Shown here: positions 15,201 through 54,971 of the stretch, piece after piece
How the letters are laid out: the number at the start of each line of letters is the position of its first letter
Position numbering within the stretch: position 1 is the first letter of the stretch
NCBI GenBank assembly: GCA_964016885.1
Contig: CAXHJY010000967.1
Location: 124,001-188,000 of the forward strand
Length of the DNA: 64,000 nucleotides
Origin: Eledone cirrhosa
Lineage: Eukaryota
Direction of reading: 5' to 3'
Position numbers and translations under genes: made by a program
The notes under the pieces: generated by a model
What the model saw: only the letters and a program-made list of their open reading frames with translations
The model's database searches: none
Told to the model about the DNA's origin: nothing

Positions 15201-15366
15201 ATTTATTGACAGATAAGAAATTCTACATCTGTTTATTCCTCTCTAAGCACAGGCATGGCTGTGTGGTTAAGAAGTTCATTTTAGGACCACACTGGGAGGC
15301 ACCTTGAGCAAATGCCTTCTACTATAGCTCTGAACAGACCAATGCACACACACACATATATATATG

Positions 15367-15484
15367 TGAAAAATTCGGGACCCCCAACGGCTGAGCTCCT
15401 GCCGTTTCAACAGCTAGATCTGAACATTCAGATCTAGCTGTTGAAATAGCAGAAGCTCAGCCGTTGGGGGTCCCGAATTTTTCA
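15367..15484. repeat. Fold-back palindrome, 58-bp arms
   Basis: Arms 15367-15424 / 15427-15484 with 3 transition mismatches; the surrounding unit lies between CA/TA microsatellites. Confidence 0.95.
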
Positions 15485-16416
15485 TATTACCCACTTTACT
15501 ACCCCAAGTATCGAGTACTCTGTTTAATATAGAAATGGCTTTTACAGGACTAGAACTGTTTCATTCAAAAGAAATCATCATGATGTTTACAATCTACTAA
15601 TGTATTGAGTACCTTACTAACTGTGGTTACCTCCAATTGTACCCGACACACACACATACATATATAAATGTCTGTTTCAGTATTAACTGAATTTAGTTGT
15701 TCTTGTTTTACTAATGTTAATTGAAATATATCTCACTCCTTAAAGCCAACAAATAACCCTGTCTAACTTCCACTGCTATATGATTATAATAAGAAGTCTA
15801 TAATAAGATGTGCCTCACCCACATGTATCAACATTCACATGTTTTCACTTACTGCTTCAAAGATTTGAGATCTTGTAACATGTAATTTATATGAATTTGT
15901 TACTAACATTGCTGTCAGAAACATTGTAGTTTAGCACAGCCAGGCTACAAAATTACAAAAGTGACACCTCTGAAAGATTAAAACACTTTCATGTATAGAT
16001 TTCTTAAATTCTTTTTCCACTTAAACACTTGACTTTATAACTATCGCTACCATAAATGAAATGATAGTTAGTGTATACATTTATGTATGTATCCACTCAA
16101 GCATAATTAAAAATTTTGTACTTTATAGTTTGTCTATACTAATGTCATTGTGTATATATATGTATGTTTTAGTATTAGCACTTAACATCCTGTAATGGTT
16201 AAACAGAAAATATCTAACAGGTTTATCAATTCAAATGTTAATATTATCTTTACTACTGAACAGATCGTTGTGAAAATTTGCTGTATAAGAGTAAAGATTA
16301 CAATTGTTAATGTGATGCAGTTGTAGTGCTGTTTTATACTTTTCAAGAATGTCTTGCTAATGCAGTTTTATGTAGGGCAGGACATTAACTCAAATTAGTA
16401 ATTATTATATTACTTA

Positions 16417-16604
16417 GGACGGTGGAGTGGCAGTATCGGTAGAGGGTCGGACGCCATGCTTTGCAGCAAAGAGTTAAGGTCCTTTATGGTCCGAGTTCAA
16501 ATCCCGCCGAGGTTAACTTTGCCTTTCATCCTTACGGGGTCGATAAAATAAAGTACCAGTAATATACTGGGATAATTGCTGGCCTTGTGCCAGAAGTAGA
16601 AACA
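16417..16604 (+). mobile_element. tRNA-derived SINE, young family
   Basis: Same body; 13-bp TSD ATTATATTACTTA (16404-16416, 16605-16617). Confidence 0.92.
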
Positions 16605-17329
16605 ATTATATTACTTATGATAATTAAAATATCTCTCACTCCTTAAAGTCAGCAATTATTCTCTGCTGGCTTCAATCCCTAAAACATAGATACAGCAAGT
16701 CAAATAATGCTTGTTTTAGTATAAACTTAACTTGGCATTTATTGTTTTATTCATAATAATTTAAATACCTCTCGTTTTAAACCCAGCAAATGACCCCTAA
16801 ACGAGTTTACATTGCCATACCCCCCCCCCCCCCCCATCCTATCGCTCCCACCCCCCCTACACAGTAAAGGCATATTTTTATAAGCTCTTTTGGCAAGGCT
16901 AGTAATATTTAGACAGCCCCCTCCATTATTGTTATATGCTCTACTTATATATACATACATCTATGTATATGCATTTATATGTGCATATATCTCTTGACAC
17001 TCTTGTAAGCTTGATCCCTACTGCCTAATCTTAGGGCCAATAGACGATCCTAGAGAAACATTCCTCTCATTATCCTTTAGGTTAAGATAGATTACTTAGA
17101 GATCAGTGAGTAGCTTTGGCAAACTAAAATAATAATATATTATATGAAAATGTCTAACACGTGTGAGAGCTCCATAACCCACATAAATTAATCACACAAA
17201 CCCCCCTCCTTCCTCCTTTCAGGTTCAGAAAGAAGAAGACTACCTCGATGATAAATGACAGTAAGTTTATCATGGCTGGCACCGGAAAGGTGTTGCAGGA
17301 AGATGAAGTTGACAATCTGCAACAAAATG

Positions 17330-17620
17330 TAAGGCCTGCAGTAGTGCCATGTTAGAGGTGGATGCAGCGTGTGTTTGCAACTCCACCAATCCACCACTAG
17401 CACAGTCTTCCTCTTTCTTTCAACACCAAGTACTTGGTGTTATAGGCCTGCATGGCTTACTGACAATTGGCATTCTTATTTGGTTGCCAAAATATTTTAC
17501 ATGTTGTTGAGCTATGAACTGAATAATAGGCATGATATCAACCATCTGCCTGATATCTTTGTTTCTGACCTGGTTGCTTCTTGTTTTACCAGCAGTTCAC
17601 GAAAGACATCTCATATCACA
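17330..17620 (-). mobile_element. Old RTE LINE C-terminal fragment
   Basis: Minus strand reads DMRCLS*TAGKTRSNQVRNKDIRQMV...VKYFG, a typical RTE C-terminal region. Confidence 0.6.
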
Positions 17621-18184
17621 GATTGTGTGTTTTATAAATTTAGTTATTGTAAATTCATTATGTATTAAACATACTCTTAACTTTTACATGCATAGTCAGT
17701 TAAGTTATGATACTAAATTTACTTTACAGAGAAGCAGGCTACACTAAGGAATAGACCTCCATTAGTTTAAATGAGTGTTCCAGTTGTTTGATTAAAGGAT
17801 CAGTCTGCACCTGAAAACGTACCCTTAATGTAATTTTCAGGAAAATTCAGTGTGACAATGTGTGATACGGTTAGCCCTTTCAATTACATGTACACCACAT
17901 TCAATGTACTTCCAAACAGTTTCCATCTACCCAATTTCCCTCACAAGGCTTAGACAGACACTTGCCCAAGATGCCATGTAGTAGGATTGATCACTAGACC
18001 TAATGATTATGAAGTCAACTCCTTAACTATTTAGCCATGCTGTGGCTCTAGTACAAGATGAAGTTGGACAGTGAAACATCAGTCCACAACCAACCTAAAG
18101 TGTTTCTTTAGTGTTATCTTTTTCTTTATAAATCACTAAATTTTCTAATTTAGATTGATTTCACATTTTCTACATTATATATAA

Positions 18185-18392
18185 CCCTTTAGCATTTACA
18201 TTACACTATATCTACTATTGTATTTTCATGGTAAAGGCTTTACCTCACATAATATCGCTTCTATGATATTTTGATGTTATTTATTTTGAGAACAATACCT
18301 TAACATCAGTATGAGTGGCTGGTTACAGCCGGTTTGAACAGAAAGAAGTGAGATAATTCTGGCCGGAAATGGCCAGTTTAAATGCTAAAGGG
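18185..18392. mobile_element. piggyBac-type MITE family A
   Basis: ATAA-CCCTTTAGCATTTA...TAAATGCTAAAGGG-ATAA; internally similar to the 6076 copy. Confidence 0.85.
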
Positions 18393-21300
18393 ATAAACAT
18401 TGCATACAATAATTTAAATGTATGACATTCATTTATTAAATTGATGTCCAAGTATGTTGCTGAAACTCCAGAATATTTATCACAATTGTCATACTTTTAA
18501 CTACACCAGTTTGTTAACAATTCTTTGGAGAAATACAAAAAATGTATAATTAATCTAACAGTAATTTCATAACGCCCATTATGATTTTATTCATTATGTT
18601 GCTGATAAAGACTGAACATCAATGCTGGTAATCTGAAGTGGTCACTAGAGCAAACAATCCCAGTCATGTTCATACCAAGTACTTTTACAATCTTTGATAG
18701 ACCTAACTGCTTCAGCATCATCATTTTACATCCATTTTCCATGCTGGCATCAGTTGGACAAGTCATCACAATTCAAGATTAGACTAGTGGAAGAACCACG
18801 TCTTGTTAATATATTCCATATTTGGTTTGGTCTCTACAGGTGAACATCAATCACTTTGCAGAGTTTACTGGATGCATTTTATCATGACACCAGCACTAAA
18901 ACATTACGGAATGCACTGGGTGCACATTATCATGTCACCAACATGAGAGAGTTGTCAAGTACGTCAAGATTGAAGAGTTCTCCCTATGCTATATTATCTC
19001 TGCTCAATTGTCAATGAGTGTACTGGGTGCATTTTATCATGGTATCAACACTAAAGAGTCCCCTCAATACTATGTTTCTCAGTTTGTTCATCCTCCACTT
19101 TACACAGGATATTGAGTGTGTTCCATTCTGAAACCAAAACTAGAGAAGCTATCTCAAACACTGCAAACTGAAAGGGATGACCTATTCATTCCATGCAGTC
19201 TCTGATCTCTCTTTATATGTACTTTTAGCAACAGAAAGAAATATAGGACCAGTGGTCACTGATAATATATTATCTATCTTATATTATCACGATTAACTCT
19301 TAATGTCCTGTACTGCATGAAACTACATTAGCAAGACATTATGCAGATCATAAAATAGCACTGTGACTGTATCACATTAAAAATCTATGTCTTTATTTAG
19401 TATAATTCAGCAAAGTTTCACACAATCTGTTCATTACCAAAGATGCTACAAGCACTTGAATTATCAAAACCTGTTCTTTGACATTTTCTGCTAAATCCTT
19501 AGAGAATGTTAAGAAGTAATACACTGGTTTTATCTTCTTAGAAGTACATCACTTTTACCTTCATAAGTGATAAGAATAACATTACTCATAAAAAGTAATA
19601 AATACAGCTCCTTCACTGAAAAATATAAACAGGCATGACTAGGAGATTAAGAGATTTGTTTCAGAACCATCTATTAGCTAACCTCAGGTTAATTAATATC
19701 TTATGAGTAGAATTTGGTAAACAGAAAGTGATCGTAAGCTTGTTTTGTACTTATGTATCTTTATCATCCTCATCAACATTTAACATCTGCTTTCCCTGCT
19801 TTGCTATCAAGAGTTGCATTTTATCACAGCACCAACACTAGGAAGGTTGTTATATCTCTCAACCCTTTGTTTGGAAAATTTTCTACGGCTGGATACCCTT
19901 CCTATCCCCCAGCCACTTTACAGAGTGTATTGGATGTGTTTTATCATAACCACACCAAAATTAGAGAGATTGTCATACACTTGACACAACAAAAGAGTCC
20001 TTTCATTGCTTTTTGGCATAGTTTCTACAGCTCAGTGCCATTCCTATTACCAACCATTTTACAAGATGTACTAGTTGCATTTTTTATGGCAATATAGAAA
20101 TTGCTGTGTGGTGACTGAAATGTACTCTCTATACTATAGGGAGGATATGATGGGGTGTGTAGGGAAATAGGATAGTGGAAGTAAGAAGGATAATAGGTAT
20201 ATGTCATAGGTATATGACAGGTGTTGTGGGATTCAAATGGGGATTGATGTGGAGAAAAGAGTGATAAAGTATTCTACTGGCTGATGACAAGTATGGTGGG
20301 GAGTAGGAAGGGTAGTACTCTGATGAATGCATCAGTTACTAAGGAGTTTATGACTGGTTAAGATTTCAATATGGTAGGTTGGGGGGAGATCCTTGGAGGG
20401 AGGTATGATAGTGAAAACAGTTATTAAGAACCGGTGATTGACATGTATGTATGTTTGAATGTGTATATCTTTCACCAGTGTATATTGACAAAGGATATAA
20501 ACACAGCAAGAAATGCAATGTTTACAAATTAAATTCCTTGAGATATTTGTTTCATACTGAATAATAGACACTCCCTTGCCACTCTCACTGTCAAAAATGC
20601 AGTGAATCAGAGATGTACTTATTGGAAACCAATAACTAATGATGCTGTAGTTTACAAATTATAATATCAAAAAGAAAAATTAATCTAAGAATCATAAAAA
20701 ACTGAAGATGATGATGAGAATTTATATTCTAAAATATAATTAAAATTATTAATTTCTATAATAAATAAAAAAGAAACAAAATGAACGTAGAAGTTTAAAA
20801 AAACTCAAATCATAGCCAATGAAAAAAATTAATTGAAAAATTGTTTAACTTTGAAACACACTAAATATACTAACTAAATGTAAAGAAACAAAATAATTCT
20901 CTCTTTTCCATTGAAGAGAAATTGACTGTAAAACCAAACCGAGCTAAATAGCTATCTAATAATGTAATATAATAATATATAAATAACACTGCTGCAAATT
21001 TTACAATAAAGTTATTTCTCTGGGAAACCTTTGTTTCATGCTGCCTGCTCCTTTCGAAAAGATTGTGCCAAGAAAATATACATTTACTGCAGTGGATTAC
21101 AAGAACATACCAATTCATCAAAAACATTTCACGGAGAAATGGAATGAATTTACAGTGAAGAAAATAAATAAAAATAACCCTAAGAATTGGAACTCAAAGA
21201 AAAAAATAATCACAACCCCATAATTTTGAGAGTTGTTTTGATCAAAAAGTAATTAACTCAACAGACATGATAGAAATTTTCTTTTTTCATCTAAAAATGC

Positions 21301-22698
21301 AATAAATATTTAAAGTTAAGAATTAGAAAATGAAAAAAAAAAAAAGATTACAAAAAGTATAGAAATATAGAATAGTAAAAGAATGATAATGCTTCAATAT
21401 ATTCGTCTAACAAGCAACATTTAAAAAAAAAAACTTTTATGAAATATTTTCGAATTTTAAAGGGAGCATGTACATTTGTGTACAGAAATTTGATATAAAT
21501 TGAAATAGCTCTAAACAGTCATGATTTACATAATGAATCATATACAAATGCAATAACTGACACATGAAGATTAACAAAACATAAAGAGATCAATTGAGGA
21601 CAAGGACTAAACAATGCCATGCTAGAGAAAATAAATACTCTAAGTAGGAAATAATATACAAGCAAAGCATATTCTAGACACAAGGACATCTGGAATTAAG
21701 GCAGCAAAATAAAAATAAGTTCAAAGAAAATATATCAAAGGAGATTGATATCATGGACATTGTATGTATGTGCAGCCTAATGGTTGGAGAAAAATGTTTC
21801 CAATAACAAACGAAGCAATCCGATCTTAATTAACAACTGAACATTCTAGTAAGTTGTTAAGTAATAAACCACCTATCAACAGGTGAAACACGAAAAAACT
21901 ATATATACATCAAAACTGAAGAAGATATGAACACCAGATAGTCATCATTTTTACCTAACAATAACTGAAAAATTTTCAGCAGAAATAAAACTGTCATACA
22001 AGGCATTATAACAAATAGCTTTTCAATTTATTGAAATTTCATTTGAAGTATTTTTTAAAGAGCTAATTTTCTTTTTCTCCCTCCACTCTCTCATGCACAC
22101 ATTCACACTCCCTTAATAATAATAATAGCAATATTCTATTCTATTCAACTACGTATTTTTTGTGGGTTTAAAAAAATGCTTATTCCAATGAACTGCATCT
22201 CCTACAATTAAAAACTTACTAACTAAATCTGAACAGACTAGCAAATGCAATGATCTGAATACAAGTTCAATTTCCTATTAAACATATATGAAAATAGTAA
22301 ATTCTGACATACAACATATATATCATCTACCAACAAAATTTACTAATGAAAATTTCATATAACTAAATCTATAAGTAAATAATCAGCATTTAACATTATT
22401 CTCTAGTTAATTTATTCTTTTAATGAGAAGCCATGATGTAAAGTAATTACCCTAACCACTTCTATAATATTTGATATAACTACTTCAAAAGTACTTACTA
22501 TTTTCTGTAAAAGTTTTATAAGGACAGTGTGATATATAAGATATTTAGTAGTTGATTTTAAATCAAAAAACTAATTGTTTCAATTCTGCTTTCATTTGAA
22601 TTTTAGACCCAATTAAATAAAATAATATTTTATTTGGTATTTTTGTAAATGTTAATAATACAACTAATTTGACATGGTAAAGTATATTTGGAATGAAG

Positions 22699-24958
22699 TC
22701 ATCATCATCATCAACGTTTAACGTCCGTGTTCCACGCTTGCATGGGTTTGGACGGGGGTAGTCCACTTGAGGCAAGAGTGATTGTCTTGCTCGCATAGGA
22801 CTGTCTGGCAGGTTTTCTACAGTTGGATGCCCTTCCTAACACCAACCACATTTACAGTGTGGGTCTGGGAGGTTTTTACCGTGTTGCCTACACGGCCACA
22901 TTACAGCGTGGACTGTGTGTTTTTTTGTCGTGGCACCTACACGACCTCATTTGTTTTGGCCTGGATGGTGTGGCACCAACATAACTTTACATAGAACGGG
23001 GTGGTGTGGATGGGGTGGTGGTGGTGGTGGGACGGGGGGGGGGTATTTTGTTAGAGATGCCTACTGGCTGTAGTAGGTTTTACTATGTATTTAGGTAAGG
23101 CGGGTCTTCTCTGTTACTGAGTACCGCCAAAGGTCTCGGTCCAGTGACATTGTCTTGGAGAGGTGTAAGTGTGTGAGGTCGGAGTTTATCAGCTCGTCCC
23201 AGGTTTTTCTAGGTCTGCCTATTCCGTGGCTACCGTCTATCTTTATTGCCCTGCACTTTGTTATACAGCTATCGACTTTCATGCGCATCACGTGTCCATA
23301 CCAACGTAGCCTTCTCTCGAGTAAACAACATCTGATCCCTCTTATTTCTAATTTTTTCCTTAGTTCGTTTATGCTTTGCCGTTCACGTATATTACTGTTA
23401 CACATCCAGCGGAGCATGCAAGCTTCGTTCCTCTCTAGTCTGCGTATATCTTCTGCACACAATGCCCAGGTCTCACTGCCATGCAACATTGCTGTTCGTA
23501 TGCAGGCATCGTACAACCTGCCTTTCATTTTTAGGGAGAACCCTTTAGCAGCTAATAGTGGTATAAGCTCTCTGAACTTTTTCCAACCAGTTCTGACTCT
23601 AGCTACTGTACTTTCAGAGCACCCTCCCCCACTGCTGATTTTATCACCCAGGTAACGGAAGCTGTCCACTATTTCTATAGAACCCTCTGCGCAATTGAAA
23701 GAGCTAGTATTTTGTGGGCACTTGCTGCTACTTACTGCACCAGAGCACCGGCCACATGTAAAATCTATGTTCTTAGTTAGCTTACCTGTGATCCCACTAC
23801 ATCTTTTATGCACCCATACTTTGCATTTAGGACATAAAATGGAGTTTCTACCTACGCCTTTCCTACACACCGAGCACGACCATTTCCCAGAAGGGACCGC
23901 TGCCTTATTTTCTTTCCTACAAACTAGAACTTTAGTCTTAGCCAGGTTAATTTTAAGTCCTTTTGATTCTAGGCCGTGCTTCCATGTTTGGAATTTCTTC
24001 TTTAGCTCGGCCATTGATTCCGCTATGAGTGTCAGGTCGTCTGCGTATAGGAGTTCCCATGGGCAGCCGGTCTTGAACTCCTCTGTTATAGCCTGAAGGG
24101 CAATAATAAATAGTAGGGGGCTGAGAACAGAGCCCTGATGGACGCCAACTTTTACGCTAAACTCTTCACTATATTCGTTGTTAATTCTAACCTTGCTGAC
24201 TGTTTCTTTATACATGGCTTGTATAGCTCTCACAAGCCATTCGTCAACGCCTAGTTTTCTAAGAGCCCACCAGATAATGGAGCGGGGGACTCTGTCGAAG
24301 GCTTTCTCCAAGTCGACAAAAGCTAAGTAGAGGGGTTTACCTTTAGCTAGGTACTTCTCCTGTAGTTGTCGTACAATGAAAAGAGCGTCTGTGGTACTTT
24401 TGCCTGACACAAACCCGAACTGCATTTCATCTAGGTGAATTCTCTCTCTGATTAGTTGTGCTATTACTTTTTCCGTGACCTTCATGACCTGGTCGGTTAA
24501 ATTAATGCCTCTATAGTTACTCCTATCTAGGGTGTCTCCTTTACCCTTATAACAGTTAACGATGATGCTGCTATGCCAGTCCTTCGGAACAACCCCATTC
24601 TGTACGACTTGGTTAACTATGCGGGTGACCATGGTGTGTCCCACCGTGCCAGATGCCTTCAGCATCTCAGCAACTATTTCCGAAGGCCCAGCCGCCTTAC
24701 CCGTCTTCATATCCTTGATTGCCTTACTTATTATACTCCCCTCGACTAACACTGCTGGTCCCTCTATTGGGTCGATATGGGGGAGACTGTCTTTCTCCCA
24801 TTTATTCTCCTCATTTAGTAGCCTTTCATAGAGACACTTCCAAGCTACCTTCTTATCAGCGTCGGTGATGGCAAGTATGCCGTCATCGTTAAGTACACAC
24901 TTCTCCCCGACAATATCACGGTTTTCCTTGACGCATTGCCTAGCAATCCTGAAACACC
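22699..24958 (-). mobile_element. RTE-clade LINE, 5'-truncated, young
   Basis: Uninterrupted RT ORF, ~390 bp 3' UTR and (GAT)n tail (TCATCATCATC at 22699 on +); CpG-rich relative to flanks; no clear TSD found. Confidence 0.95.
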
Positions 24959-24968
24959 AATGAGACAA
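23091..24968 (-). CDS. RTE LINE ORF fragment: reverse transcriptase with internal C4HC3 PHD-like finger; endonuclease missing through 5' truncation
   Basis: RT motifs NYRGINL, QFGF, FVDLEKAFDRV, GVHQGSVLSPLLF, LLYADD, GLKINLAKTK, FRYLG; RTE C-terminus RRLRWYGHVMRM...GRPRKTW. The predicted start is not the true initiator. Confidence 0.9.
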   Translation of the reverse strand: MSHWCFRIARQCVKENRDIVGEKCVLNDDGILAITDADKKVAWKCLYERLLNEENKWEKDSLPHIDPIEGPAVLVEGSIISKAIKDMKTGKAAGPSEIVAEMLKASGTVGHTMVTRIVNQVVQNGVVPKDWHSSIIVNCYKGKGDTLDRSNYRGINLTDQVMKVTEKVIAQLIRERIHLDEMQFGFVSGKSTTDALFIVRQLQEKYLAKGKPLYLAFVDLEKAFDRVPRSIIWWALRKLGVDEWLVRAIQAMYKETVSKVRINNEYSEEFSVKVGVHQGSVLSPLLFIIALQAITEEFKTGCPWELLYADDLTLIAESMAELKKKFQTWKHGLESKGLKINLAKTKVLVCRKENKAAVPSGKWSCSVCRKGVGRNSILCPKCKVWVHKRCSGITGKLTKNIDFTCGRCSGAVSSSKCPQNTSSFNCAEGSIEIVDSFRYLGDKISSGGGCSESTVARVRTGWKKFRELIPLLAAKGFSLKMKGRLYDACIRTAMLHGSETWALCAEDIRRLERNEACMLRWMCNSNIRERQSINELRKKLEIRGIRCCLLERRLRWYGHVMRMKVDSCITKCRAIKIDGSHGIGRPRKTWDELINSDLTHLHLSKTMSLDRDLWRYSVTEKTRLT

Positions 24969-25198
24969 ATGTGATAGGAGAAATTCAAATAAATGATAAT
25001 GCTATCAATGATCACAATGTAGAAAAAGAAAATGCGTCACCAGCGTGATCAAGGATAAAATTTAGTGAACAATTTATAGACAGAACACTTTTCATGAAGA
25101 GTTGAGGGGAGGATAAATTAATTAATCAGATTCTTAAAACTTTGTTGCAGCTGGCAATAAACTTAACCTACTTATACCTGGTCCTCACCATATAAATA

Positions 25199-25357
25199 CA
25201 GTGAAGTTCCGTCATAACGAAATTCATGGAGTATAAAGTGAAATTTGTTGTAACGAGATCGGCCTAACACATTGAGCGTGTGGCCGAAGATTAAAAAAAA
25301 TTTTGTTATACTAAAAAATTCATCATAATGGTATTTGTTATAACGGAATTTTATCTG
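25199..25357. mobile_element. Tc1/mariner (pogo/Tigger-like) MITE
   Basis: TA-CAGTGAAGTTCCGTCATAAC...GTTATAACGGAATTTTATCTG-TA imperfect TIRs. Confidence 0.75.
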
Positions 25358-28154: not shown

Positions 28155-32488
<4,334 letters not shown>

Positions 32489-35772: not shown

Positions 35773-35866
35773 GTTATTCAGTAGCCTCAGTAATAGTTGT
35801 GTGAGATGTAGTATGACTGCCTATATTGCATCTGTTTTGCTGTCAAGTCAATTCATATATCATTAA

Positions 35867-36084
35867 CCTTTTTGATACCAAACCACCTGAAACCAAGTCA
35901 TGTGATACAAACAAGTTATCTTCAAGTGTTTACATTTATCTAAAAAAACAAACTTTGTAGGAACCTTTGTTAAGTTATGCTTCAAACACTAGCTAAATAA
36001 TTAGAGCATTATATTGCTAAATCCCTCCATATTCTTAATTATTTGAAAATCATAGAGTGTCTTACAAATATGGTAACAAAAAGG
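35867..36084. mobile_element. piggyBac-type MITE family B
   Basis: TTAA-CCTTTTTGATACCA...TGGTAACAAAAAGG-TTAA; diverged relatives at ~5745-5980 and ~37955-38185. Confidence 0.75.
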
Positions 36085-36544
36085 TTAAAGATTCTAGTAG
36101 AGGTTTTCACAAAGACAAGTGAAGTAAATTGAATTCAGAACAGCCTTACTGGGCAGCTCAGGATAGAATTAAGACTCAGTGTAGCAAATATTACAATGTA
36201 AGCATCATCCTAATTTTTACATCTGCATTTCCATACTGGCTTGTGGAAAAGATGTTTAGATACATTGTTTTACAGCTGGATGTCTTATCTGCCATCAAAC
36301 CTTTTAGTTTGCCTCCTGCAGTCATTTTATTAAATATGGTTATTTTATATTCATGGTTAATAAAAGATAGTATTAGTAGTAGTCTTCTGAAGTATCACTG
36401 ATACATTTAGAAGTGTGTAGTTGGTGGCACATGTAGTTGTAGGAATTATATAAGTTGGAACTGACTCTACCATGAACTATGACCTCTGAATTTGTAAATG
36501 GTTGTTATTATGTATGTTGTATATAGGTAGAATGAGTAGTATGG

Positions 36545-37720: not shown

Positions 37721-39665
37721 TGATAGCTAAGAAGATTAGGTCAAAAATATAAAGTACTGCAATATATGCAACATTTTTTAAAAATTTTCAGTAGATATTT
37801 GACTTTGGAAAAAGATTGTACAACAATATCCTATAGATGTTTGAAGTCGAGCTAAATGTTACTAATGTGTATAAAAGATGAAAATTATATGAAATATAAT
37901 AGACTCTCAGATTGACACGACTAACAATAAATGGACACTTTAAGTACATTAACTCTTTTGATACCAAACCACCTCTCTTTCAATGATACAAAACTGTTTG
38001 TTTTAAAGTATTTATATTTATCTCAAAACCTCCAATCATGATTTTATGCAAGAACCTTTAAGTTATATTCCAAACAACAGAAAGTTAATTGTATTACTAA
38101 ATTCCTCAAAATTGTAGATTATTTTCAAAGGGACTTGAAAATCATAGGCAGTGTCTTTCATTAGAAATATGATGAGATAAGAGTTCAATTGTAGCTGAAA
38201 GTTTGATTTTATGGTTTGTTTGATGAGGTAGATAATCTTGTCTCTTGCAAGATTAAATCAACAATGTGGTGAACCAACAATATTTCTCTCAGAGAAAATG
38301 TTTGTAGTGACTAAAAGAACTTTAGGGACTTTTTGAGTAATAGTAACAGATTCTTTCTGATCATAAAACAATGTTTATAGTATCAGAAGTGTGATGTCAA
38401 ATGGCAGTAAGATATGACTACAAAAGATAGATTATTAATTGCTGTTGAGGAATCGGTTGAATATAATTTTCTGAGTGTAGGAAGAGAAGCTGCATGGTTT
38501 AGTGGTTAGGGTGTTCAGCTTATGGTCATAAGGTCATGAGTTTGAGTCCTTGAGCAAAACACTATCCACATTACTCTAGTTAACTCAGGTGATTGAAAGG
38601 GCCAACCTTCACAGACTGCAGCATGCTGAATGTCAGTCACGTGTACATTAATCTGATGAGCAGGTTGTTCTGTTGATCAACCAGTGGAAGACTCATTGTA
38701 AGAGAGGTCCAACAACACAGAAAGACAGACTGAGTAATAGATAAGTTAGGAAAAAATATATGAGAGTGAAGCAAATTTGATGTTTTGGAACAGTGATACG
38801 TATGGATTAATATGGATTAATACATGCTAAAAAATGGAGGATGAACTAGTCCTACTTTTTTCTGTCTCTAGGGGCTTATATGCCCAACTTATTAAACTGA
38901 TTTTCATAGTTGAAAAACGTGTTGAAGTCATTAACTCTAAGTTGACCTAATATTCAAAAATTTGTAACTCACTCATTGGTTCTAAAAATAGATGGTTTAT
39001 TTACATTTGTGGCTGATTGAAAAGCTTAAAAAAGAGAAAGGTGTGGCCACCTCACTTTGGTGTAATGGAAGCACAGCTACATGGCATACAGCAGGTATGA
39101 GTTTGAGTCATACAGGTGACACTGTTCATTTTTTTCATCTCCCAGGGCTTACACGCCCAATTTATTAGACTGTTTTCCATAGTCTAAAAGTGTGTGTTGA
39201 AGCTGTTAACTCTGAGTTAACTTAATATTCAAATATCTGATTTTCTCCCTAAGGATCAACCCATCCTACCCATGCTAGTATGGAAGATGGATGTTAAATG
39301 ACAATGATGATGATATATATATGTATATATATATATATATGATGTGTGTGTGTATATATATATGTATATATATATTATGTTGGTACCATAAAACATCCAG
39401 CCCACACTGTAAAGTGGTTGTGTAGGTGTCACGTAAAAGCACCCAGCCCACACTGTCAATGTGGTGCGCGTTAGGAAGGGCATCCAGCTGTAGAAAACCA
39501 GCCAGAAAAGTCCTATATGAGCGAGAGATGGTCACCCAACCCAACTTGCCTCTAAATGGGACAAACCTGTCTAACCCATGCTAACGTGGAAGACAGATGT
39601 TAAATGATGATATATATATATATATATATTAATTCAAAATATTAATAAATATAGACATTCACGTA

Positions 39666-39750
39666 ATCAAAATATATTTTATTATATATATTTCGGAGGT
39701 ACTGTGCTTTTTTTCAGTACGTCCTCATCAGATAAAATATATAAATTGAT
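39666..39750 (-). ncRNA. Minimal type I hammerhead ribozyme fold (Penelope-like element type)
   Basis: Minus strand: ATATATTTTAT-CTGATGA-GGACGTACTG(aaaaaaagca)CAGTACCTCC-GAAA-TATATA-TA^ATAAAATATAT; 11-bp helix I, helix II with one mismatch, palindromic helix III, intact core. Confidence 0.8.
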
Positions 39751-39984
39751 GTACTGAAAAAACAGGACAGTACCTCCGACATATATCATCATCATCATCA
39801 TTTCATTTTACGTCCGCTTTTTCCCTGCTTGCAAGGGTGGGGCGGGAACTGATTGTGGCTTGATTTCTACAGCTTGATGCCCTTCCTAACACCAACCTCA
39901 TTTACAGTGAGTGCTGGGTGTTTTTTGCCATGGCACCTGCACGATCACTTTGCAGTAGAATGATATGGACCCCAGTCCCTATCA

Positions 39985-40128: not shown

Positions 40129-40495
40129 ATTGTCTATATTTATTAATATTTTGAATTAATATTAATAACTCAAGAAAACTTTTTTGTTGAGTGCTTCTAA
40201 TCTATTGTAAAACTATATTCATTGATTAATCAATGAACCTTGTTTAACTTTTGGTTATATATATATAATGAGAGGTACACACATATGTGCATACATACAT
40301 ACACATGTATATATACACATATACTTTTTCACAAGTATGTGAGATTGTGTGTTGTCGACCTTAACCAGTGTTGCTCTATGATTATGAGAGACAAGATAAT
40401 CGAAGTAATTAAATTGAATCGATATCAGAGCTATGTAACAATTATAAAGTAAGAAGAAATAGTAGACACAGATATATACCTATTCTTTCTTCAGA

Positions 40496-40734
40496 AATCC
40501 TAGTCATTTAGAACATTTAGGGTACATAATTCTTGTTAGTGTCATAGGTAACATGTGGAGAGTCAGGAGTTAAAAAGATGTTCTGCTTAAAAGAACACAA
40601 TTACAGGCAGCACTGGTTGAAAGTGTGTGCTGCCTGTAATTGTGTTCTTTTAAGCAGAACATCTTTTTAACTCCTGACTCTCCACATGTTACCTATGACA
40701 CTAACAACAATTATGTACCCTAATGACTAGGATT
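40496..40734. repeat. Fold-back palindrome, ~110-bp arms
   Basis: Arms 40496-40613 / 40627-40734, near-perfect apart from one ~10-bp indel and one substitution; 13-nt loop. Confidence 0.95.
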
Positions 40735-40760
40735 TTAGTAACATGTTTCGACATTCCCTA

Positions 40761-40813
40761 TGCTCCGATGATTCCAAACTTCCCTCTGGAAGAAACAATT
40801 GTCAGCAAATAAA
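40761..40813 (+). ncRNA. Minimal hammerhead ribozyme fold with one core change (CCGATGA)
   Basis: TGCT-CCGATGA-TTCCA(aacttccctc)TGGAA-GAAA-CAATTG-TC^AGCA followed by AATAAA. Confidence 0.65.
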
Positions 40814-40847
40814 TGTTCTAAACTAAAATTTGATCGTTTTAACACTT

Positions 40848-40886
<39 letters not shown>

Positions 40887-41390
40887 AAATGAGGAGAAGA
40901 ATACTGCATGGTTGCACATGGATAACATGTTATAAAATGAGTCCCTGATCAGTGATTTACCAACGGTCATAGGTATTTCATTGCATTAAAAATCATATAC
41001 CTCACGTTGGCGCAATAATAACTAAAATAAGTTATTAGGACAATTAAAACGCGTAAAGCGAGTGAGACAAGTAAACAACAAAGAGGAAAGCTAACCGAAG
41101 ATAGGAAAAGACACAAACTACATAGTTATTCTATCAGTATAAGCTGGGTGAATATATGAGCGAGTAGAAAATAGACCTTTCGAGATGAATCCGATGTAAG
41201 AAAGAAGGAATCGTTAACGTCGCGAAAGGGGGGAAGTGAGAAGGGGAGAAACAGTGAGTGAGTGAGTGGAAGTGTGAGGAAGAGGTCAGTAGAGAGAAAG
41301 TGTTAACTGACATGACAGAGGGGACGAAAGAAAGTAAGTGAAACAGAGAGAACGAGGGAGCAGTAAGAGAGAGAGAGAGAGAGAGAGAAA

Positions 41391-41434
<44 letters not shown>

Positions 41435-41443: not shown

Positions 41444-41683
41444 CATTGAGTGTTCTGTGATTGCCTCAAAACAAATCAAATTGTACATGCTATATATATA
41501 TATAGATAGATATCTTTCTTTATTTGCCACAGGGGCGTACAAAAATGGGACATTACAAGACGTGATGGCGTCTTGTAATGTCACATTTTTGTATACCCCT
41601 GTGGCAAATAAAGAAAGATATCTATCTATATATATAGCAAGTACAATTTGATTTGTTTTGAAGCAATCACAGAACACTCAATG
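41444..41683. repeat. Fold-back palindrome, ~117-bp arms
   Basis: Arms 41444-41562 / 41569-41683; 6-nt loop TGATGG; a few mismatches. Confidence 0.95.
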
Positions 41684-42751: not shown

Positions 42752-42808
<57 letters not shown>

Positions 42809-42811
42809 CAG

Positions 42812-43445: not shown

Positions 43446-43464
43446 ATTAGACGTCTTCCTCTCG

Positions 43465-47700: not shown

Positions 47701-48308
47701 TAAACGAAAGATTGGGAGCCACTAGGACCACCAACCGTTGTTTGCAGGAATTAAAAGAGATGATGATGATAGTATTAGTAGAAATAGTAGTAGTGGTGGT
47801 GATGGAAATAATAATACAAAAGTAGCATGTTAACAGTTTAAGACATCAATGAATGTATTCATTGAATGGTGATGATGATGATGATGTCTGAAGCTAAACA
47901 ATCATGATGGGCAAAATCTCCAATAAACAAGGATTAGATGAATACAGCAAGTGGTGGAAGTTCTAACAAGTCTTCTCACATTAAAAGACTTCCAGAAGTT
48001 GTGACCAACTTAATACAAAATTTCCCATCGAGTTATGGCTATTATCATTATTAATTCATTAATACTATTATGAGAGGTTAGAGGGGGGGATGCTGATGAT
48101 TGATAGAGAACTAAAGAAATAAACAGCAGGGGAATTAACAGAAAATAATTACTGCTGCTGCTAATAGAGAATTATAGAGAAGGTGGCGATGGTGGGGATG
48201 GATTTTTTTTTTCTCCCCAAAACCTCATTCGTACCGTGCCGTACAGTTTATACTCATGAGAATCACATTGGGTTTTTAAATAAACAAAAATCAAACAAAA
48301 AAACTTAC

Positions 48309-48441
48309 GCCGACTGGGTCTCCGAGGACCGGAAGATGAGCCGGGGTCAAAATTCCTTGCTCGATCCCTTTCTCTGGAACTATTTTCCTCTATCAATCTC
48401 CGTTCCAGTTGGTTCAGCTTGTTTTGTATTGAAGTGGACAT
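48309..48441 (-). CDS. MAP2K7: First coding exon of a probable MAP kinase kinase 7 (MKK7/hemipterous) gene; rest of gene lies towards lower coordinates
   Basis: ATG in CAAC-ATG context; encodes MSTSIQNKLNQLERRLIEENSSRERDRARNFDPGSSSGPRRPSR, resembling the MKK7 N-terminal coiled coil (human MAASSLEQKLSRLEAKLKQENREARRR...PQRPRP, recalled); ends at a strong C|GTAAGT phase-1 donor (GT at 48308-48307); lies in a locally CpG-rich zone. No kinase-domain exons seen in the window. Confidence 0.7.
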
Positions 48442-48452
48442 GTTGAAGCGCG

Positions 48453-48464
48453 GGTCACATGACC
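48453..48464. promoter_or_regulatory. E-box/M-box-like near-palindrome GGTCACATGACC
   Basis: Immediately upstream of the exon-1 ATG; matches the TCAYRTGA class of bHLH-ZIP (USF/MITF/TFE) sites. Function is inference. Confidence 0.35.
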
Positions 48465-49039
48465 GTAGCATACAAATATAGCAACATATTCAGAGCCACA
48501 GATTAAAGTTGTTACTACCCCCCCCCCTCACCCTAATGTTTTTAACCATATATTTTTAATAAAGAATTTTATATTTGGATGACACAAAACAATATATATA
48601 TATATATATATATATTATATTTATATTTACATAGTAATATGACTGAGAATTAAGAAATAATCAAATTGTTGTTTATATACAAGTAAGGAATGCCGAGGGA
48701 GTTTTTCTTTTTTAATCTGTATGTACTCTATGTGGATTAATGGGATTTATATTAAACGCGTAGTTTTGAGATTTTGGTCCATTTAGAAAATTAGAATTAA
48801 ATTAATAGCAAAAATTAGTTTAATGTAAAGTTTATCCCAACTACTATATGTGTGTTTTTATATGTATTTGTTAATCTGGGGCTGAAGGAACAGAACTTAG
48901 AACATTTTAGGCCTTTCTAGCCTACAGGATTGAAAGTTGTGATCAATATTGAGAGTGGAATGAATGAGGTTTTTCTACATTTACTATTCAGAATCAATTG
49001 AGTAAAACTAATAGAGGAACTTAAACTATGTAAGATTAG

Positions 49040-49168
49040 TGAACTTTGTCTTTCATCCCTCCGAGGTCGATAAAATATAATCTCAGTTAAGTATTGGGGG
49101 GGGGGTCGATATAAACGACTCACCCCTTCCCTCTAAAATTGTTGGCCTTGTGCCTAAATAAGAAACTA
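49040..49168 (+). mobile_element. Older related SINE 3' half
   Basis: AACTTTGTCTTTCATCCC.CCGAGGTCGATAAAAT...GGCCTTGTGCCTAA; similar decayed copies at ~3116-3230, ~7430-7565 and ~61310-61460 (-). Confidence 0.7.
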
Positions 49169-49549
49169 TTTATGCTTATTAATATTTGGTAGGGCGCTGT
49201 GGTTACCAATCAGGAACAATTTGTGCCGTTTTGGCAATTGATGTTGCGAGATAAATTAAAAAGATTAGTTAGTACAAGTAACATTTAGAGATAACAAGAT
49301 AGTGCGGTTACTGGCGAGTGTGATCTGTGTCCGTGACCAGATTCAATTCTCAGCTGAGATGATTTTGTGTGCATGTGGATTTTATCACATATAAATATCT
49401 GCTATAAAAGTAAATGTTTGCTACATGATAGGTACGTTATATAGTGTTATAGTTAAAATACGAAACGGCTGTTATGAATAAACTCCTCTTTATAAAGCAA
49501 TATTTACATACATATACAGTAACATAGGTGTGTGTGTAAATATATATAT

Positions 49550-50200
49550 GTTGGAGGTGGGGGACGTGATGAGAATGGAGGACTGTAAGTTACCCAAACA
49601 ACTGTTTATGGTGAGCTGAGGGATGGCAAACATCGACCTGATAAACCCAAGATGCTGTTCAAGGACTGTGTGAAAACATCTTTGATAAAAGCTGGCATTT
49701 CCGATGGAGATTGGAAAGAAGCTGCCAATGGTCGAACTCGGTGGAGAGAAACTCTATATAAGTACACTTTAAAACAACCCGAAGAAATTATGAAAGGTTA
49801 AAAAGGGATGTGAGGAAGGTCTTGAAAAAGAAACTGCCAGGAAGTGTGGGAGAGCCTGCCTCAGCAAAGCTGGATTAAAGAGTCACAAAAGGAGCTATGT
49901 AAAAAGGGCTGGTGCAGATTATATTGGTGCGTATAGTATAACAACCTGCCATTAATATAATTGTTTCTACTTTAGACACAAGGCCAACAATTATCCAGTA
50001 CATTACTGGTACTTTATTTTATTGACTAAGTCTGCCAATCACCAGGAGGCCTGAAGCAATACATGGCAACCCATTCCTGCTGTCAAAAGCCATGTCTGTA
50101 ACATCTGTGCTAGAGAATGTTGGCCTAAATAGTCACAGCCATGCTATACACGCAGTCTTTGAAAATTCAAGCCATAACTATACTCGAGCCCAAGGTGGCT
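49550..50200 (+). mobile_element. RTE/BovB-like LINE 3' fragment interrupted by a SINE
   Basis: VMRMEDCKLPKQL..GELRDGK...FKDCVK..L...W.E.A..R..WR followed by C2H2-like remnant CGRACLSKAGLKSHKRS. Confidence 0.7.
49960..50044 (-). mobile_element. Internally deleted copy of the same SINE
   Basis: 3' body joined to head remnant CTGCCAATCACC. Confidence 0.7.
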
Positions 50201-51179
50201 GCCATCATATATAGATATATGTGTGTGTCCCCTTCTGCTAGCATTTTCCAGCAGCTATCCCCACCACCATTGCACCCCTACCTATGTTCCCTCCAGTGCC
50301 ACTCCTTAGCTACTACCCCCTCTTATGCATCTTAGCAGCTACTCTTCCTATCTCCTGTACACCCCCTCCGCTATCACCCCTATTACACCCCACCTACACA
50401 CTATTGATCACATTATCCGCACACACACACCAATATATCCCCTCACCCTATAAACAATCAGTCACCTCATCCCCTTGCCAAATCACTACATACACCTATA
50501 ACTTCATACCTATCTTCCTCCCATGTCACCTGTCCGTTCCCCACACACAGAGCAGAGAGAGCTCTTCAGTGGGGACTATAGCCAATAACCTTTCTAGTGA
50601 TGGTGGCAAGAAAATACACCATGTACACCACCCGAGGTGGTTGGCAACAGGAAGGGCATCCCACTGTAGAAACCATGTCTAAAAGAGTTGGGAGGATTCC
50701 TCAGTTATGTCAATTGCACAACAACCTCTCAAATGTTGGTGATCTACTGGGGTGATGAAAATATATATATGTTGGAGTAAAAGAAAAATATAGGAGGATC
50801 AGTTAATTATAATTTTATTCAACATGTTCCCAGATTCACACACTTATTGCAGCTGTCCTACCTTCCCTGTAAAGGTAACAGCTCCATCCTTTCCTGATAC
50901 CCTTAAGCCAAGAAATTTTCAGCACCATGTTACACAATAAATGCATCCAGTACATGCTGTAAAGTGGTTGGAAATAGGATAGGCATCCAGCCGTAGAAAG
51001 CTTGCCAAACAAAAGGTGAGGTCCCTCCAGTTGAGTCAAAAACATGACAACTTTAGTGCTGGTGTCACAATAAAATGCACTTGGTAGAACATGGAACATA
51101 TGTAAACCAGATGTGAACCCTTGGTCAGATTAGTACAGACTTAGTCTGTGAAGACCCGTCCAATCCTTGCATATTTCAG

Positions 51180-52960
51180 TAACTTGCAGCTATAATAGCC
51201 TGGAGATCAGTCAGAGATGACCTGTGCGAAACACTAAACTCTGTCCAGCTCAGAGTGGGAGTCAAATGTGGATGTTAGGCAACTGCCCATGTGGCCAGGC
51301 ACTACATATAGCACATGTCCCCTTTGTTACCTTGCCTCCTAGTGAGGCTAGACATGAAAATCGCTTTCAGCAGCATTAGGCTGCATCACATTTTTAAGAT
51401 GTATCTAAGAGCTGTTCCATCGTTACTTCCCCTTACCTCTCCTATGCACAAACAGATCATCTCTGCCACAGGTGTCCACTCAGCCCACTCCTCTTTGTGC
51501 TGGCTGTTGATGATATTGCCCACTCAGTCCACTTATTCTTCAATTGGTACTTGAAAAACATGATGCTAGGTGGCTCAATTGAGTGTGTTGTTGAGGACCT
51601 TCAGAAAGTTATCCCAGCCCTAAAGCTCCTAGGACTTAAAATCAACCCGTCCAAGTCTGAGGTCGTAAATGTGGGCTACAGCAAAGCTGAATTCCAAGAC
51701 ACTATATACAGCCTGTCCTGACTGGGGTTCGGCTAATGCTGTAAGACACTGTCTACATTCTCAGCTCTCCAATCCTCCCAAAAACCATATGGAGACCAAG
51801 CATGCAGACCTGACAAAGATGAATAAGAAATTGTGCTACATTGATGTGCACCTAGTACTATTCCTCCTGATGAACTGCTTTGCTCTCCCTAAACTCCTTT
51901 TCATGTTGCACGGTACACCTTGTTACCCTTTTGCAGATTGCCTCATCAAATTTGTTGCCACCATTTGATGCTGTGCTGTACTCATTTGCAATGTTAGCTT
52001 CGACAGTGACAGCTGGCAAAGCTCCTGGGAAATTCTGTGGCATTGACTTCTGATCCTCTTCAGACCTGGCATTGCCAGCTTATCTCTCCTCAATCTCCTC
52101 CAGTCAAACTCTCATCAGCAAGGTCCTCCGCAAGACAACAGAACCTGACATAGCCCAGGAACTGGAGTCAGCTCTGACCAATTGGAGCAACAAAGGCTCG
52201 CCGTCCTCCAGTATACCAAAGTCAAATGTAACTGGGACGACATCATGTGCAGTTCTTCCTGAGTATGCCTTGGACCAACACTGTCTCGCATACTGCTTTT
52301 CTGCCTCGCAACCAAACTGGCGTGTGGCTCAATTCAGTGCTCTCCTCATTAACTGGTACCCTTCTTGATGAGTACACTCACATTGGAGTAGCCCAGCACT
52401 TCAGCTTCCACATGTGCTAGCAATACAAATGCTGTTGTGGAGCTATTGTTGATGAGTTCAGCATGCACTTGCTATTATGCCAACTTAGCACAGGCCAGTT
52501 ACCCCGACACACCACTCTGAATGACATCATCAAGAGGAGCCTTGATGCAGTCAGCTTCCCGTCACAACTGGAACCTAATGGCCTTGACCATGGTGATTGT
52601 AAGCACCTCAACAAATAATCCTCTTCGCATTCAAGGGAGGTAAATCCCTAATCTAGGATGCAACATGTGACTCATTATCTGATTCCAACCTTGTTGCTTC
52701 AGCCACAAACCTAGGAGGCACCACTGACCCCAATGCAGAGGAGAGGAAGATAACTAAATACTGGGGCTTGACTGACCACTTCCTTCTCATACTGGTTACC
52801 GTCATGACCTCTGGTATCCTTGGTCCCTGCACTGCCGATTTCACCCCACCCCATGGGACTCCTTCCATGGGGTGGGGTGGGGGGCTATTGCAGCAGGTCT
52901 CACTGGCCATTCTCTGGCAATGCCTTTGCCATTATGTCAGCAGGGCACAGCTGAATCATG
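51180..52960 (+). mobile_element. Degenerate CRE-like non-LTR retrotransposon (RT plus restriction-like endonuclease)
   Basis: QLRVGVKCGC*ATAHVAR; LDMKIAFSSI; WYLKNMMLGG (WYLDDG equivalent); GLKINPSKSE; CFALPKLLFML; CCGAIVD...RHTTLNDIIKRSL...LEPNGL..GD.K.(P)D...DATCD. Confidence 0.8.
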
Positions 52961-53179
52961 GTTCAATCAGAGGTGTAGAGTCTGGCCCTCTCACCCCTCT
53001 CCATTTCTTTCGTTGCTTAATTCTCTTTTTTCTATTTTTTTTGCTTCATTTAAATAGTATTATTTTATAATTGTAAATATTATTGAATAAATTGTTAAAG
53101 TATTGTGTTATTTATGTGAAACTGAAGTAATTACATTTTAGAAGATAGCTATTTAAGAACACACAAAAGCCACTGTGGT

Positions 53180-53850
53180 ACTGTGGTCAGATGTTGCCAT
53201 TCTTATCTGAATACTGCCCTTTGTGGCACTGACTCTTCAGCCTGTCCTAACCATTGTACCAAAGCAGTACCTCACTATACTGCTAGCATCACACCTTTCT
53301 CCAATTTGGGAGCACTTCTTCAAACATGGCCTTCATTCTGCAGCAGTCTTTCTCCACAATCCAATTTCTACTCAGCTTATACACAACTCTAAAGAAGTGA
53401 CTCACGTTCCACTTGACAAGCATATTTTTAGGCAACTCTGAATAAAATGCAGCATTGTTGTCCATCCAGGAATATTTCGTTCAGCATCTCTGGAAACTCC
53501 ATACCAATTTCCCTCCCTATTGCTATCCACCTTAGTCTGCAGTCAATCATTAAGAGATACACCCCTTGCTGAAAGTGTTCTACATTTACTGCCAACCCTT
53601 TCTAGTTGTCTTTTACCCCTATCTTCCCAGTCTTATGCACTGTTGGTAGAGGGTTGAAGGCCTGACATATGTCACAGCTCCTGACCATCTTTCAAATGTT
53701 CTCTCTGTGACATTTGAGTCAACTTTCCTGGTTAAAAATTGGGTCCTATCCACTCCCTTATCGCATGCTGTGCTTCTCCTTAACTCTGGATACCCAACCA
53801 ACACACTATAGCCACCATCCTCATAGAAACCTCAAGTACACCCAACCAAT
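53180..53850 (-). mobile_element. Degenerate Gypsy-type integrase fragment
   Basis: Minus strand GVDRTQFL...VRSCDICQ (HHCC remnant) and MDNNAAFYSE...WNVSHFF..YK.S.N.IVEK..RMK (DDE core), then WYN...VPQRAVF. Confidence 0.75.
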
Positions 53851-53864
53851 TATATATATTCTTA

Positions 53865-54290
53865 CCTAAGTACCTCACTAGGAAGATGGAATTAGTGGTG
53901 CCTTTGACGAGCTAAAAACCAAACTGCATCTCACTAAGATTAATTTTGTCCCTAATCAATTTTGCTATCACTTTCTGTAACCTTCAGAACCCGATCCAAT
54001 AATTTGATGCCATTGTAATTACCTCTCTCTAGTGCATCTCCTTTTCCATTATAACAGTTTACAATTTATGTTACTACCTGGTTACTATTCAAGTGACTAG
54101 CCTGTGTCATGCTTCACTTGATAGTTTCACAATCTCAGCAACTGCCTTCTCTTCCTTCATATATCCTTAATCACTTTATTTATCATACTGTTGCCAACTT
54201 TAATAACTGGTCCCTCAGTTGAGTCTACTTGCGGTAGACCCTCATTTTCCATACATTCTTCTCATTCAGCCAACTCTTGTAATAAATCTT
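53865..54290 (-). mobile_element. Degenerate RTE LINE internal fragment
   Basis: Minus strand reads IVNCYNGKGDALERGNYNGIKLLDRVLKVTE...SEMQFGF, homologous to the 23 kb ORF. Confidence 0.8.
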
Positions 54291-54599
54291 TCCAGTATCT
54301 GTAAGGCTAAGTGAACTGCTGTTATTCCTTGCACTATTCTCCTTATGATGTATTGGTTCTCTCTTGTACACTTGTAAAATATATATATGGGATAACAAGT
54401 TATCATTTTAGGTAATCCAGTTAGAGGTTGCCAGTACTCTGTATGGATAGTTTTAACGTACGGCGTTGTTTGACTCAACAAGAGGTTTCCTTAGTTAGGT
54501 AGCGAGTTTGCGAGAATTCCCATGCAGGTCATTCTTGGAGTAATAGTAGTGAAAGAGTGAAGAATAACATGGTCGGCTGTACAAAAAGGGTTTTATTTA

Positions 54600-54714
54600 C
54601 AGTATTAACAATTGTTTCATTGATCAGGTGAGTCTAAAGGCCGCTGATCACTCGAAATTGTGTCACTCGACCTTAAATACAGTGTGCGTTTCTGATCAAA
54701 TCATCAGAATACTG
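54600..54714 (-). ncRNA. Hammerhead ribozyme fold with long loop II
   Basis: Minus strand: CAGTATT-CTGATGA-T-TTGATCAG(64 nt)CTGATCAA-T-GAAA-CAATTG-TT^AATACTG followed by AATAAA. Confidence 0.7.
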
Positions 54715-54971
54715 GAGTACTGGAGGGTATAACACATGGCATTGGAGAAATCAAGTGAATGAAAACAATAACATCAATAATAAAAGATAATAAACAATAA
54801 TAAAAGTATAAAGAAGTTAAAATGAAAATGATATGTATAAATATATATAGATATGTTTCTTTATTAACCACAGGGGCACGAAAGAAGGGGACAAATACAA
54901 AGGGAGAAGTTTACATACAATAAAAACGTGTAAAATACTATGACAAATGCAATTTAAAAGATAGATAGATA

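Follow-up and report, generated by a model that had tools for sequence, protein, structure and literature searches.

Several of the features treated here have been described before for Penelope-like elements. In the parts of the literature drawn on in this work, these retroelements are reported to leave inverted 5'-truncated copies and tails and to be biased towards (TA)n targets, and Hydra hammerheads are described together with an Octopus Hydra family (PMC8557442); File S1 of that study lists a preference for (TA)n, a family from Octopus and one inverted copy truncated at its 5' end, and in its File S2 the base of stem II shows a T.T apposition for 14 of the 26 Hydra rows. The formation of inverted insertions by Penelope-like elements is called undefined there, and head-to-head palindromes have been read as self-priming on an antisense template (PMC3846280). 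Some minimal hammerheads of Penelope-like elements lie on opposite strands, 100-700 bp apart (PMC4209133), and in Octopus vulgaris 31 recently active Penelope-like families have been reported (PMC13282606). Here we analyse a stretch of 64,000 nt from Eledone cirrhosa (GCA_964016885.1, contig CAXHJY010000967.1, positions 124,001-188,000 of the forward strand), referred to below as the window, in which a first-pass annotation had proposed five short units (15.4, 39.7, 40.6, 41.5 and 54.6 kb) combining TA-rich flanks, fold-back arms, hammerhead ribozyme motifs and AATAAA signals. Family-level comparisons were made on DNA of other animals, in place of the source genome.

Our findings make it probable that the hammerhead units are what 5' truncation has left of the 3' ends of elements from several Penelope-like families with an endonuclease, and that their hairpins are by-products of insertion. 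The features are real and the system is likely not a new one, the units being stubs from Penelope-like families that are uncatalogued or unmapped; what the window adds is mostly unannotated stubs of a described class, whose hammerheads escape Rfam. The idea that these are truncated Penelope pseudo-LTRs (long terminal repeats) preferring TA is thus supported, since the same layout is tied to elements with an open reading frame (ORF) in other animals and is also published. The claim of a poorly described system did not survive, as earlier work already covers inverted copies with 5' truncation, the hammerheads, the targeting of (TA)n and a Hydra family in Octopus. In kind, the units correspond to the ordinary 5'-truncated Penelope ends that the annotation had named as its counter-case, a likeness of type and not an assignment to families named for this genome. 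As in the Penelope-like insertion units described in passages of PMC3846280 and PMC8557442, the window shows head-to-head palindromic 5' junctions, strong 5' truncation, solo ends and AT-rich targets; unlike those units, it holds stubs of 100-450 bp without coding sequence. The short palindromic helix III, the mostly single occurrence and the tie to truncated elements are shared with the minimal hammerheads as presented in PMC4209133, whereas the G10.1-C11.1 pair of that class is kept at 39.7 kb only and a core base is changed at 40.8 kb.

The hammerheads carry much of this argument. A type I descriptor scored on the window and on 40 shuffles gave 22 for 39672-39742 (-) and 17 for 54600-54714 (-), a score of 15 being reached in none of the 40 shuffles; the site at 40.76 kb, whose core has one change, scored 9, a level met 0.5 times per shuffle and not significant alone. 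The covariance model R2 was made from 20 Penelope-linked motifs from 11 loci of other animal DNA, and both sides change in 10 of its 13 pairs, in an alignment that was itself fitted to the model. Over 1-40200 and 40400-64000 it returned nine matches up to E 3, of which four have E < 0.001 (Table 1) and the fifth falls to 11.9 bits (E 0.22), these E-values being rough. The 41.5-kb unit gave no R2 hammerhead match, and a further hammerhead to the left of the 40.6-kb arm or within 40883-41393 was rejected for the same reason. Among 86 Rfam matches in the window up to E 1, none is to a hammerhead family and none reaches the gathering score. AATAAA lies behind the hammerheads of 39.7, 40.8 and 54.6 kb, while that of 15.5 kb has ATTAAA only, and a (TA)n tract was found near all four (177 nt past the motif at 15.5 kb), as proposed; the left end of the 40.6-kb unit, by contrast, does not adjoin a TA tract. 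At 54.6 kb the two core halves are 82 nt apart (54622-54703, -), and the sequence between them contains an 8-bp stem together with an insert that folds weakly. Since core spacers of 7-17 nt, and half cores at 35-50 nt, were searched according to the passages of PMC8557442 at hand, such motifs may be undercounted.

Table 1. Coordinates of the hammerhead and fold-back units and of their flanks in the window (R2, match of the covariance model).
Feature	Position	Strand	Remarks
(CA)n(TA)n left flank	15345..15367	+	Recurs at 15647-15671, 88% over 25 nt, E 0.16 (weak, low complexity)
Symmetric fold-back, 124 bp, TA at both ends	15364..15487	.	Arms 15364-15424/15427-15487, 57/61 identical, spacer 2; fold z -21.5
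Decayed type I hammerhead	15543..15580	-	First core base and stem I lost; T.T at stem II base; best R1-model match in 1-40200; R2 15543-15580 (-), 21.1 bits, E 0.00077, partial, stem I lost
(TA)n tract at 3' end of 39.7-kb stub	39610..39629	.	47 nt past hammerhead
Intact type I hammerhead motif	39672..39742	-	Loop III palindromic; AATAAA overlaps stem I; R2 39677-39737 (-), 24.1 bits
Inverted copy of hammerhead stem II to stem III, head to head	39748..39786	+	Ends near predicted cut site; arms 39686-39723/39748-39786, 35/38 identical, spacer 24
Inverted arm of 40.6-kb stub	40495..40613	-	Stops before hammerhead
Direct arm running into hammerhead	40627..40735	+	Arms 40495-40613/40627-40735, 108/109 identical plus 10-nt indel, spacer 13
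Type I hammerhead, one core change, bulged stem I	40750..40817	+	R2 and fold; R2 40759-40809 (+), 20.9 bits, E 0.0005; AATAAA 40808-40813
(TA)n tract	40850..40881	.	40 nt past hammerhead
(TA)n tract just outside left arm of 41.5-kb unit	41394..41431	.	
Head-to-head fold-back without hammerhead	41444..41683	.	Arms 41444-41562/41569-41683, 110/115 identical, spacer 6; AATAAA outward in both arms
(TA)n tract	54379..54388	.	212 nt past 54.6-kb hammerhead
Type I hammerhead, no fold-back	54600..54714	-	7-bp stem I; T.T at stem II base; AATAAA 3 nt on; R2 54601-54713 (-), 26.4 bits
Lone relative of 41.5-kb core	54841..54900	-	75-77% identity; no fold-back; without 50-nt extension

The second line of evidence is the geometry of the arms. 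The window holds four fold-backs (15.4, 39.7, 40.6 and 41.5 kb) and none at 54.6 kb. Fold-back and hammerhead are each present in four of the five units and together in three, and no unit has TA flank, fold-back, hammerhead and AATAAA all intact. That the units share subsets of these parts therefore stands, with the reservation that the 41.5-kb unit is without a hammerhead, the 54.6-kb unit without a fold-back, and the 15.4-kb unit likely two insertions. At the latter, the palindrome sits 3' of the decayed hammerhead, which points toward it, and because of this position and of the TA at both its ends it is likely a separate second insertion; the flank at 15345 and its recurrence look like a split or duplicated target. 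The units are mutually unrelated, as had been noticed (28 pairwise comparisons, best z 2.0). The inverted arm stands head to head with the unit at 39.7 and 40.6 kb by the direction of the hammerhead and at 41.5 kb by that of AATAAA. The distance between arm starts is 2-24 nt for the window units and 7-60 nt for the comparator units described below; the end of the inverted arm varies, lying near the cut site (39.7 kb), before the hammerhead (40.6 kb) or past the TA tract (41.5 kb). Near-coincident starts together with varying ends are what the folding back of a single strand should give. In the inverted arm at 40.6 kb there is, in addition, a 13-nt patch whose only other occurrence in the window is at 40810-40822, 75 nt past the end of the direct arm, which suggests template switching; a deletion in the direct arm would also fit.

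For three of the four hammerheads a fold-back is found no more than 100 nt away, and this was tested post hoc: co-occurrence goes beyond chance under random placement (P 7e-5), as first claimed, and is much weaker for placement beside TA tracts (P 0.018). This drop is what would be seen if host break repair at fragile TA tracts made the fold-backs and the hammerhead stubs coincided with them only through the shared (TA)n, and the 41.5-kb unit and the 15.4-kb palindrome, which have no hammerhead of their own, would suit such an origin, as would the fold-back inverted duplications known at breaks in yeast (PMC11724301). We nevertheless regard host repair as improbable: the yeast events are mostly 5-34 bp in the account given there, against arms of 38-115 bp in the window, and at 39.7 kb, at 40.6 kb and in three comparator units the fold is placed at the 5' truncation of the element.

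The link to Penelope-like elements comes from comparator loci. A sequence pattern taken from the units at 40.8 and 54.6 kb and run on metagenome sequence matched 109 loci, of which 108 were dropped because they have no hammerhead fold. In the remaining one (L067) the hammerhead lies 316 nt after a 429-aa Penelope-type ORF with a YRDD reverse transcriptase (RT), a CxCx5C linker and C-terminal endonuclease motifs; the linker and the endonuclease of this ORF agree with the account of the Hydra clade given in the passages of PMC8557442 at hand. This protein has 3,751 relatives at E 1e-10, and a protein search with an alignment of 26 of them gave 10 more loci from genome bins. On one of these contigs, a stand-alone, TA-flanked head-to-head unit of 317 bp carries hammerhead and AATAAA in both arms (L113:3507-3824). 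Over 206 nt it shares 96% identity with L118:4566-4771, where an element of the same assembly that encodes a 513-aa ORF has its 3' end; a second, unrelated unit of this kind (L113:4213-4632) is found about 400 bp away. A fold-back at L118:4790-4951 has (TA)n at its start and continues into coding sequence of Penelope-like type. Among 16 comparators, the distance from hammerhead to (TA)n is 25-53 nt in five and 97-112 nt in five, with no such tract within 260 nt in six, against 47 and 40 nt for the window units at 39.7 and 40.8 kb; AATAAA or ATTAAA adjoins the hammerhead in 11 of the 16. The CxCx5C linker and DKT marks are present in the comparator proteins only, the window units holding no coding sequence. 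The lack of a Penelope RT and GIY-YIG ORF in cis is as expected of short stubs.

Two observations were made along the way on these loci. Elements L111-L119 carry a recurring small hairpin box (GCTC...GAGCAC type), one or two between the hammerhead and the ORF start or the tail end, which could be a protein-binding or RT-start signal of Hydra-type elements. Ten contigs from prokaryote genome bins (L110-L119) hold animal-type Penelope-like elements, pointing to host DNA carried along.

From these data we hypothesize that the stubs arise by aborted target-primed reverse transcription in (TA)n, followed by fold-back copying. A full-length element elsewhere would supply RT and GIY-YIG endonuclease; a (TA)n tract would be nicked and complementary DNA (cDNA) started beyond the hammerhead, at a distance of some tens of nucleotides up to about 200 nt; synthesis would stop early; the free cDNA end would fold back and copy itself over a variable distance; and repair would join the folded cDNA to the other target end. 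The antisense template of the self-priming proposed in PMC3846280 is here suggested to be the cDNA. Stubs formed in this way would be dead on arrival, and they would cluster because the same TA tracts are used repeatedly. If the host is an octopus, elements such as the recently active families of O. vulgaris are plausible donors, by analogy; the main text of that repeat annotation mentions neither hammerhead nor palindrome (PMC13282606). No work on fold-back cDNA inverted duplication by Penelope-like elements appeared among the literature matches listed, which is a weak basis for absence.

As to family, the units at 54.6 and 15.5 kb are probably of Hydra type, judging by sequence features. The Hydra clade, Hydra-1_Obim included, shares (TA)n targets and a type I hammerhead near the 3' end with the window, and it shares with these two units the T.T at the base of stem II, a common and not a defining mark that is present in just these two of the four window motifs; a T-rich stretch upstream of the 54.6-kb hammerhead, at 54.7-54.8 kb, is a further likeness to the clade as presented in PMC8557442. 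Insertion into (TA)n is not specific to Hydra, being common to Naiads in the same source, and the 82 nt between the core halves at 54.6 kb exceed the 11-31 nt of the comparator motifs. Several results weigh against the origin that we favour. The hammerheads of the window differ from the Octopus Hydra motif published in the supplement of PMC8557442, there is no ORF by which to place the units beside Hydra-1_Obim, the T.T is absent at 39.7 and 40.8 kb, and an axolotl retrozyme described in the passages of PMC7229834 at hand has this mismatch as well. The tie of stubs to ORF-bearing elements comes from other animal DNA, and no nucleotide similarity was found between the window units and the comparator loci. 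The hairpin box of the comparator tails is present in none of the four window units, and the units at 15.5 and 54.6 kb, which end 177 and 212 nt past the hammerhead, fall outside both distance classes of the comparators. No Hydra-type coding remnant was found in the window with a 120-protein profile (best E 0.35), nor a Neptune-type one with a 34-sequence profile (best E 0.23). One of the 20 rows of the R2 model (L067) came from the window-derived pattern. Finally, the inverted arm L113:3703-3807 and another stub (L118:2822) share their terminal base, and this is more readily explained by a second priming event than by a free fold-back.

This last point bears on double priming, in which both (TA)n strands are nicked, each primes a cDNA on Penelope RNA, and the two cDNAs are joined head to head. 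A biochemical precedent exists, since the Poseidon protein of the anole cuts AT-rich DNA on both strands, extends both, and starts at two internal sites that bound the tail, hammerhead cleavage not being needed in vitro (PMC11167929); in L113, moreover, the long tail is found in one arm, and the end of the short arm coincides with that of another stub. Independent cDNAs, however, would seldom come to a stop 2-24 nt apart, the inverted arm at 40.6 kb ends upstream of the hammerhead, and the arms at 41.5 kb carry sequence past the TA tract that is absent from their relative at 54.85 kb. We therefore hold double priming to be possible but unlikely, and fold-back of a single cDNA to be the better account of the hairpins. 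Arms that copy target flank would tell the two apart genome-wide.

The retrozyme-like, non-autonomous system of the first-pass annotation, that is, families of small ribozyme retroelements copied in trans, fared worst and appears very improbable to us. The animal non-LTR retrozymes resemble the window units in being small, non-coding and Penelope-related with a type I hammerhead (PMC7229834; 10.64898/2026.07.22.740005, in the passages drawn on), stems are kept in three motifs, and animal retrozymes, which occur as monomers too, have been proposed to stem from Penelope pseudo-LTRs (10.64898/2026.07.22.740005). Those retrozymes, on the other hand, are tandem 150-450-bp repeats that give circular RNA, while the window units are single and inverted: none of the 21 tandem-repeat rows of the window covers a hammerhead, no second copy of any hammerhead unit was found in the window among the matches listed, and the junction is different in each unit. 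Monomer folds of the hammerheads are predicted to cost 4.7-8.7 kcal/mol, and in a modelled read-through RNA the hammerhead of 39.7 kb would be trapped by its inverted arm (predicted penalty 24.1 against 4.7 kcal/mol). In the comparators, besides, an element with an ORF terminates in this very layout.

The 41.5-kb unit deserves separate treatment. Read outward, each of its arms has about 60 nt that resemble the 3' end of a retroelement and include AATAAA, then a TA-rich tract, then about 50 nt more; beyond the arms, eight extra bases match, directly on the left and behind a 29-nt microsatellite on the right. The left arm reaches the long (TA)n within 4 nt, and the right side runs on without a boundary. 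The core matches 54810-54900 (77% over 91 nt, E 1.6e-14), and behind its tail this relative at 54.85 kb has a different sequence from that of the 41.5-kb unit. The unit thus seems to be an insertion into (TA)n with a fold-back arm that runs into the flank, a reading based on a single relative of 75-77% identity. The passages of PMC3846280 and PMC8557442 at hand describe inverted copies of element sequence, and no arm into the flank like this one. We put forward tentatively, and with more doubt than confidence, that the inverted arm was copied from DNA (new cDNA, TA target and 50-58 bp of flank) and not from a second RNA. If true, cDNA snap-back at TA tracts would make head-to-head inversions and could duplicate host sequence into palindromes, and retroelement ends without a hammerhead would form snap-back palindromes as well. 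It is likely that the 41.5-kb unit and the 15.4-kb palindrome were made by the same fold-back step as the other stubs. The family of the 41.5-kb unit is possibly Naiad, or else a long interspersed element (LINE): Naiads, as portrayed in the passages of PMC8557442 used, share with it the (TA)n bias, inverted insertions, the lack of a canonical hammerhead, and cephalopod remnants. A 14-nt motif of the unit has no exact match in the supplement of PMC8557442, where line breaks could hide one. Next to the unit, a single-copy stretch of 510 bp (40883-41393) lies between two long (TA)n tracts; its minus strand is pyrimidine-rich and ends in a T run and then TA, neither a hammerhead (model R2) nor a noteworthy Pfam match was found in it, and it is possibly another retroelement 3' end.

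Two further candidates were set aside. A decayed GIY-YIG domain antisense to the hammerhead in the 40.6-kb arms, an idea formed by eye, has no homologue and no Pfam match, scores -0.1 bits against a narrow profile of Neptune-type endonucleases and ranks about 250 among 854 blocks in a frameshift-aware scan. The region downstream of the 54.6-kb hammerhead, taken as a whole pseudo-LTR, shows no similarity to four comparator regions (best z 0.8). No relatives were found among the viral contigs scanned, and a word search of sequencing runs (8 runs from 4 studies, each with fewer than half of the words and none listed as RNA) carries no weight either way.

The window as a whole has a GC content of 33% and abundant TA tracts. 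It also holds short dispersed repeats, which we take to resemble octopus SINEs (short interspersed elements), as well as remnants of LINE-type RT and a fragment of a PIF1 helicase. Pfam scans covered 293 stop-to-stop frames (144 + 149) out of the 411 of at least 45 aa, and the clear matches were to LINE-type RT, its PHD finger and PIF1 only. Placement of the hairpins in introns, as first suggested, is left without support because no host-protein match of note was found among the 293 frames. The statement that no RT lies nearby is right for Penelope, no ORF of which was found in the window, and wrong for LINE-type RT, as RVT_1 matches occur at 23094-25001, 51398-51718, 63050-63421 and 63425-63727. 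The first of these belongs to an open frame of 636 aa on the minus strand (RVT_1 E 5e-33, followed by a PHD finger), to which a fragment at 59968-60354 is related; the PIF1 fragment (58494-58838, +, E 2e-10) is perhaps the remnant of a Helitron. A compound TA-rich satellite of 4.3 kb with higher-order units of about 24-47 nt occupies 28166-32486. At 54970-56956, a 2-kb LTR-type element has 329-bp direct repeats (321/329 identical), a primer-site-like stretch behind the first, presumably similar to the transfer RNA for tryptophan (tRNA-Trp), and a purine run ahead of the second; with no Pfam match in its longest frames, it is likely young and non-autonomous. Three related elements similar to miniature inverted-repeat transposable elements (6069-6303, 18185-18392 and 60954-61175) measure 200-235 bp with terminal inverted repeats of 14-21 bp and, in two of the three, TTAA at the ends; the sequences at 35859-36092 and 59213-59461 form pairs similar to them.

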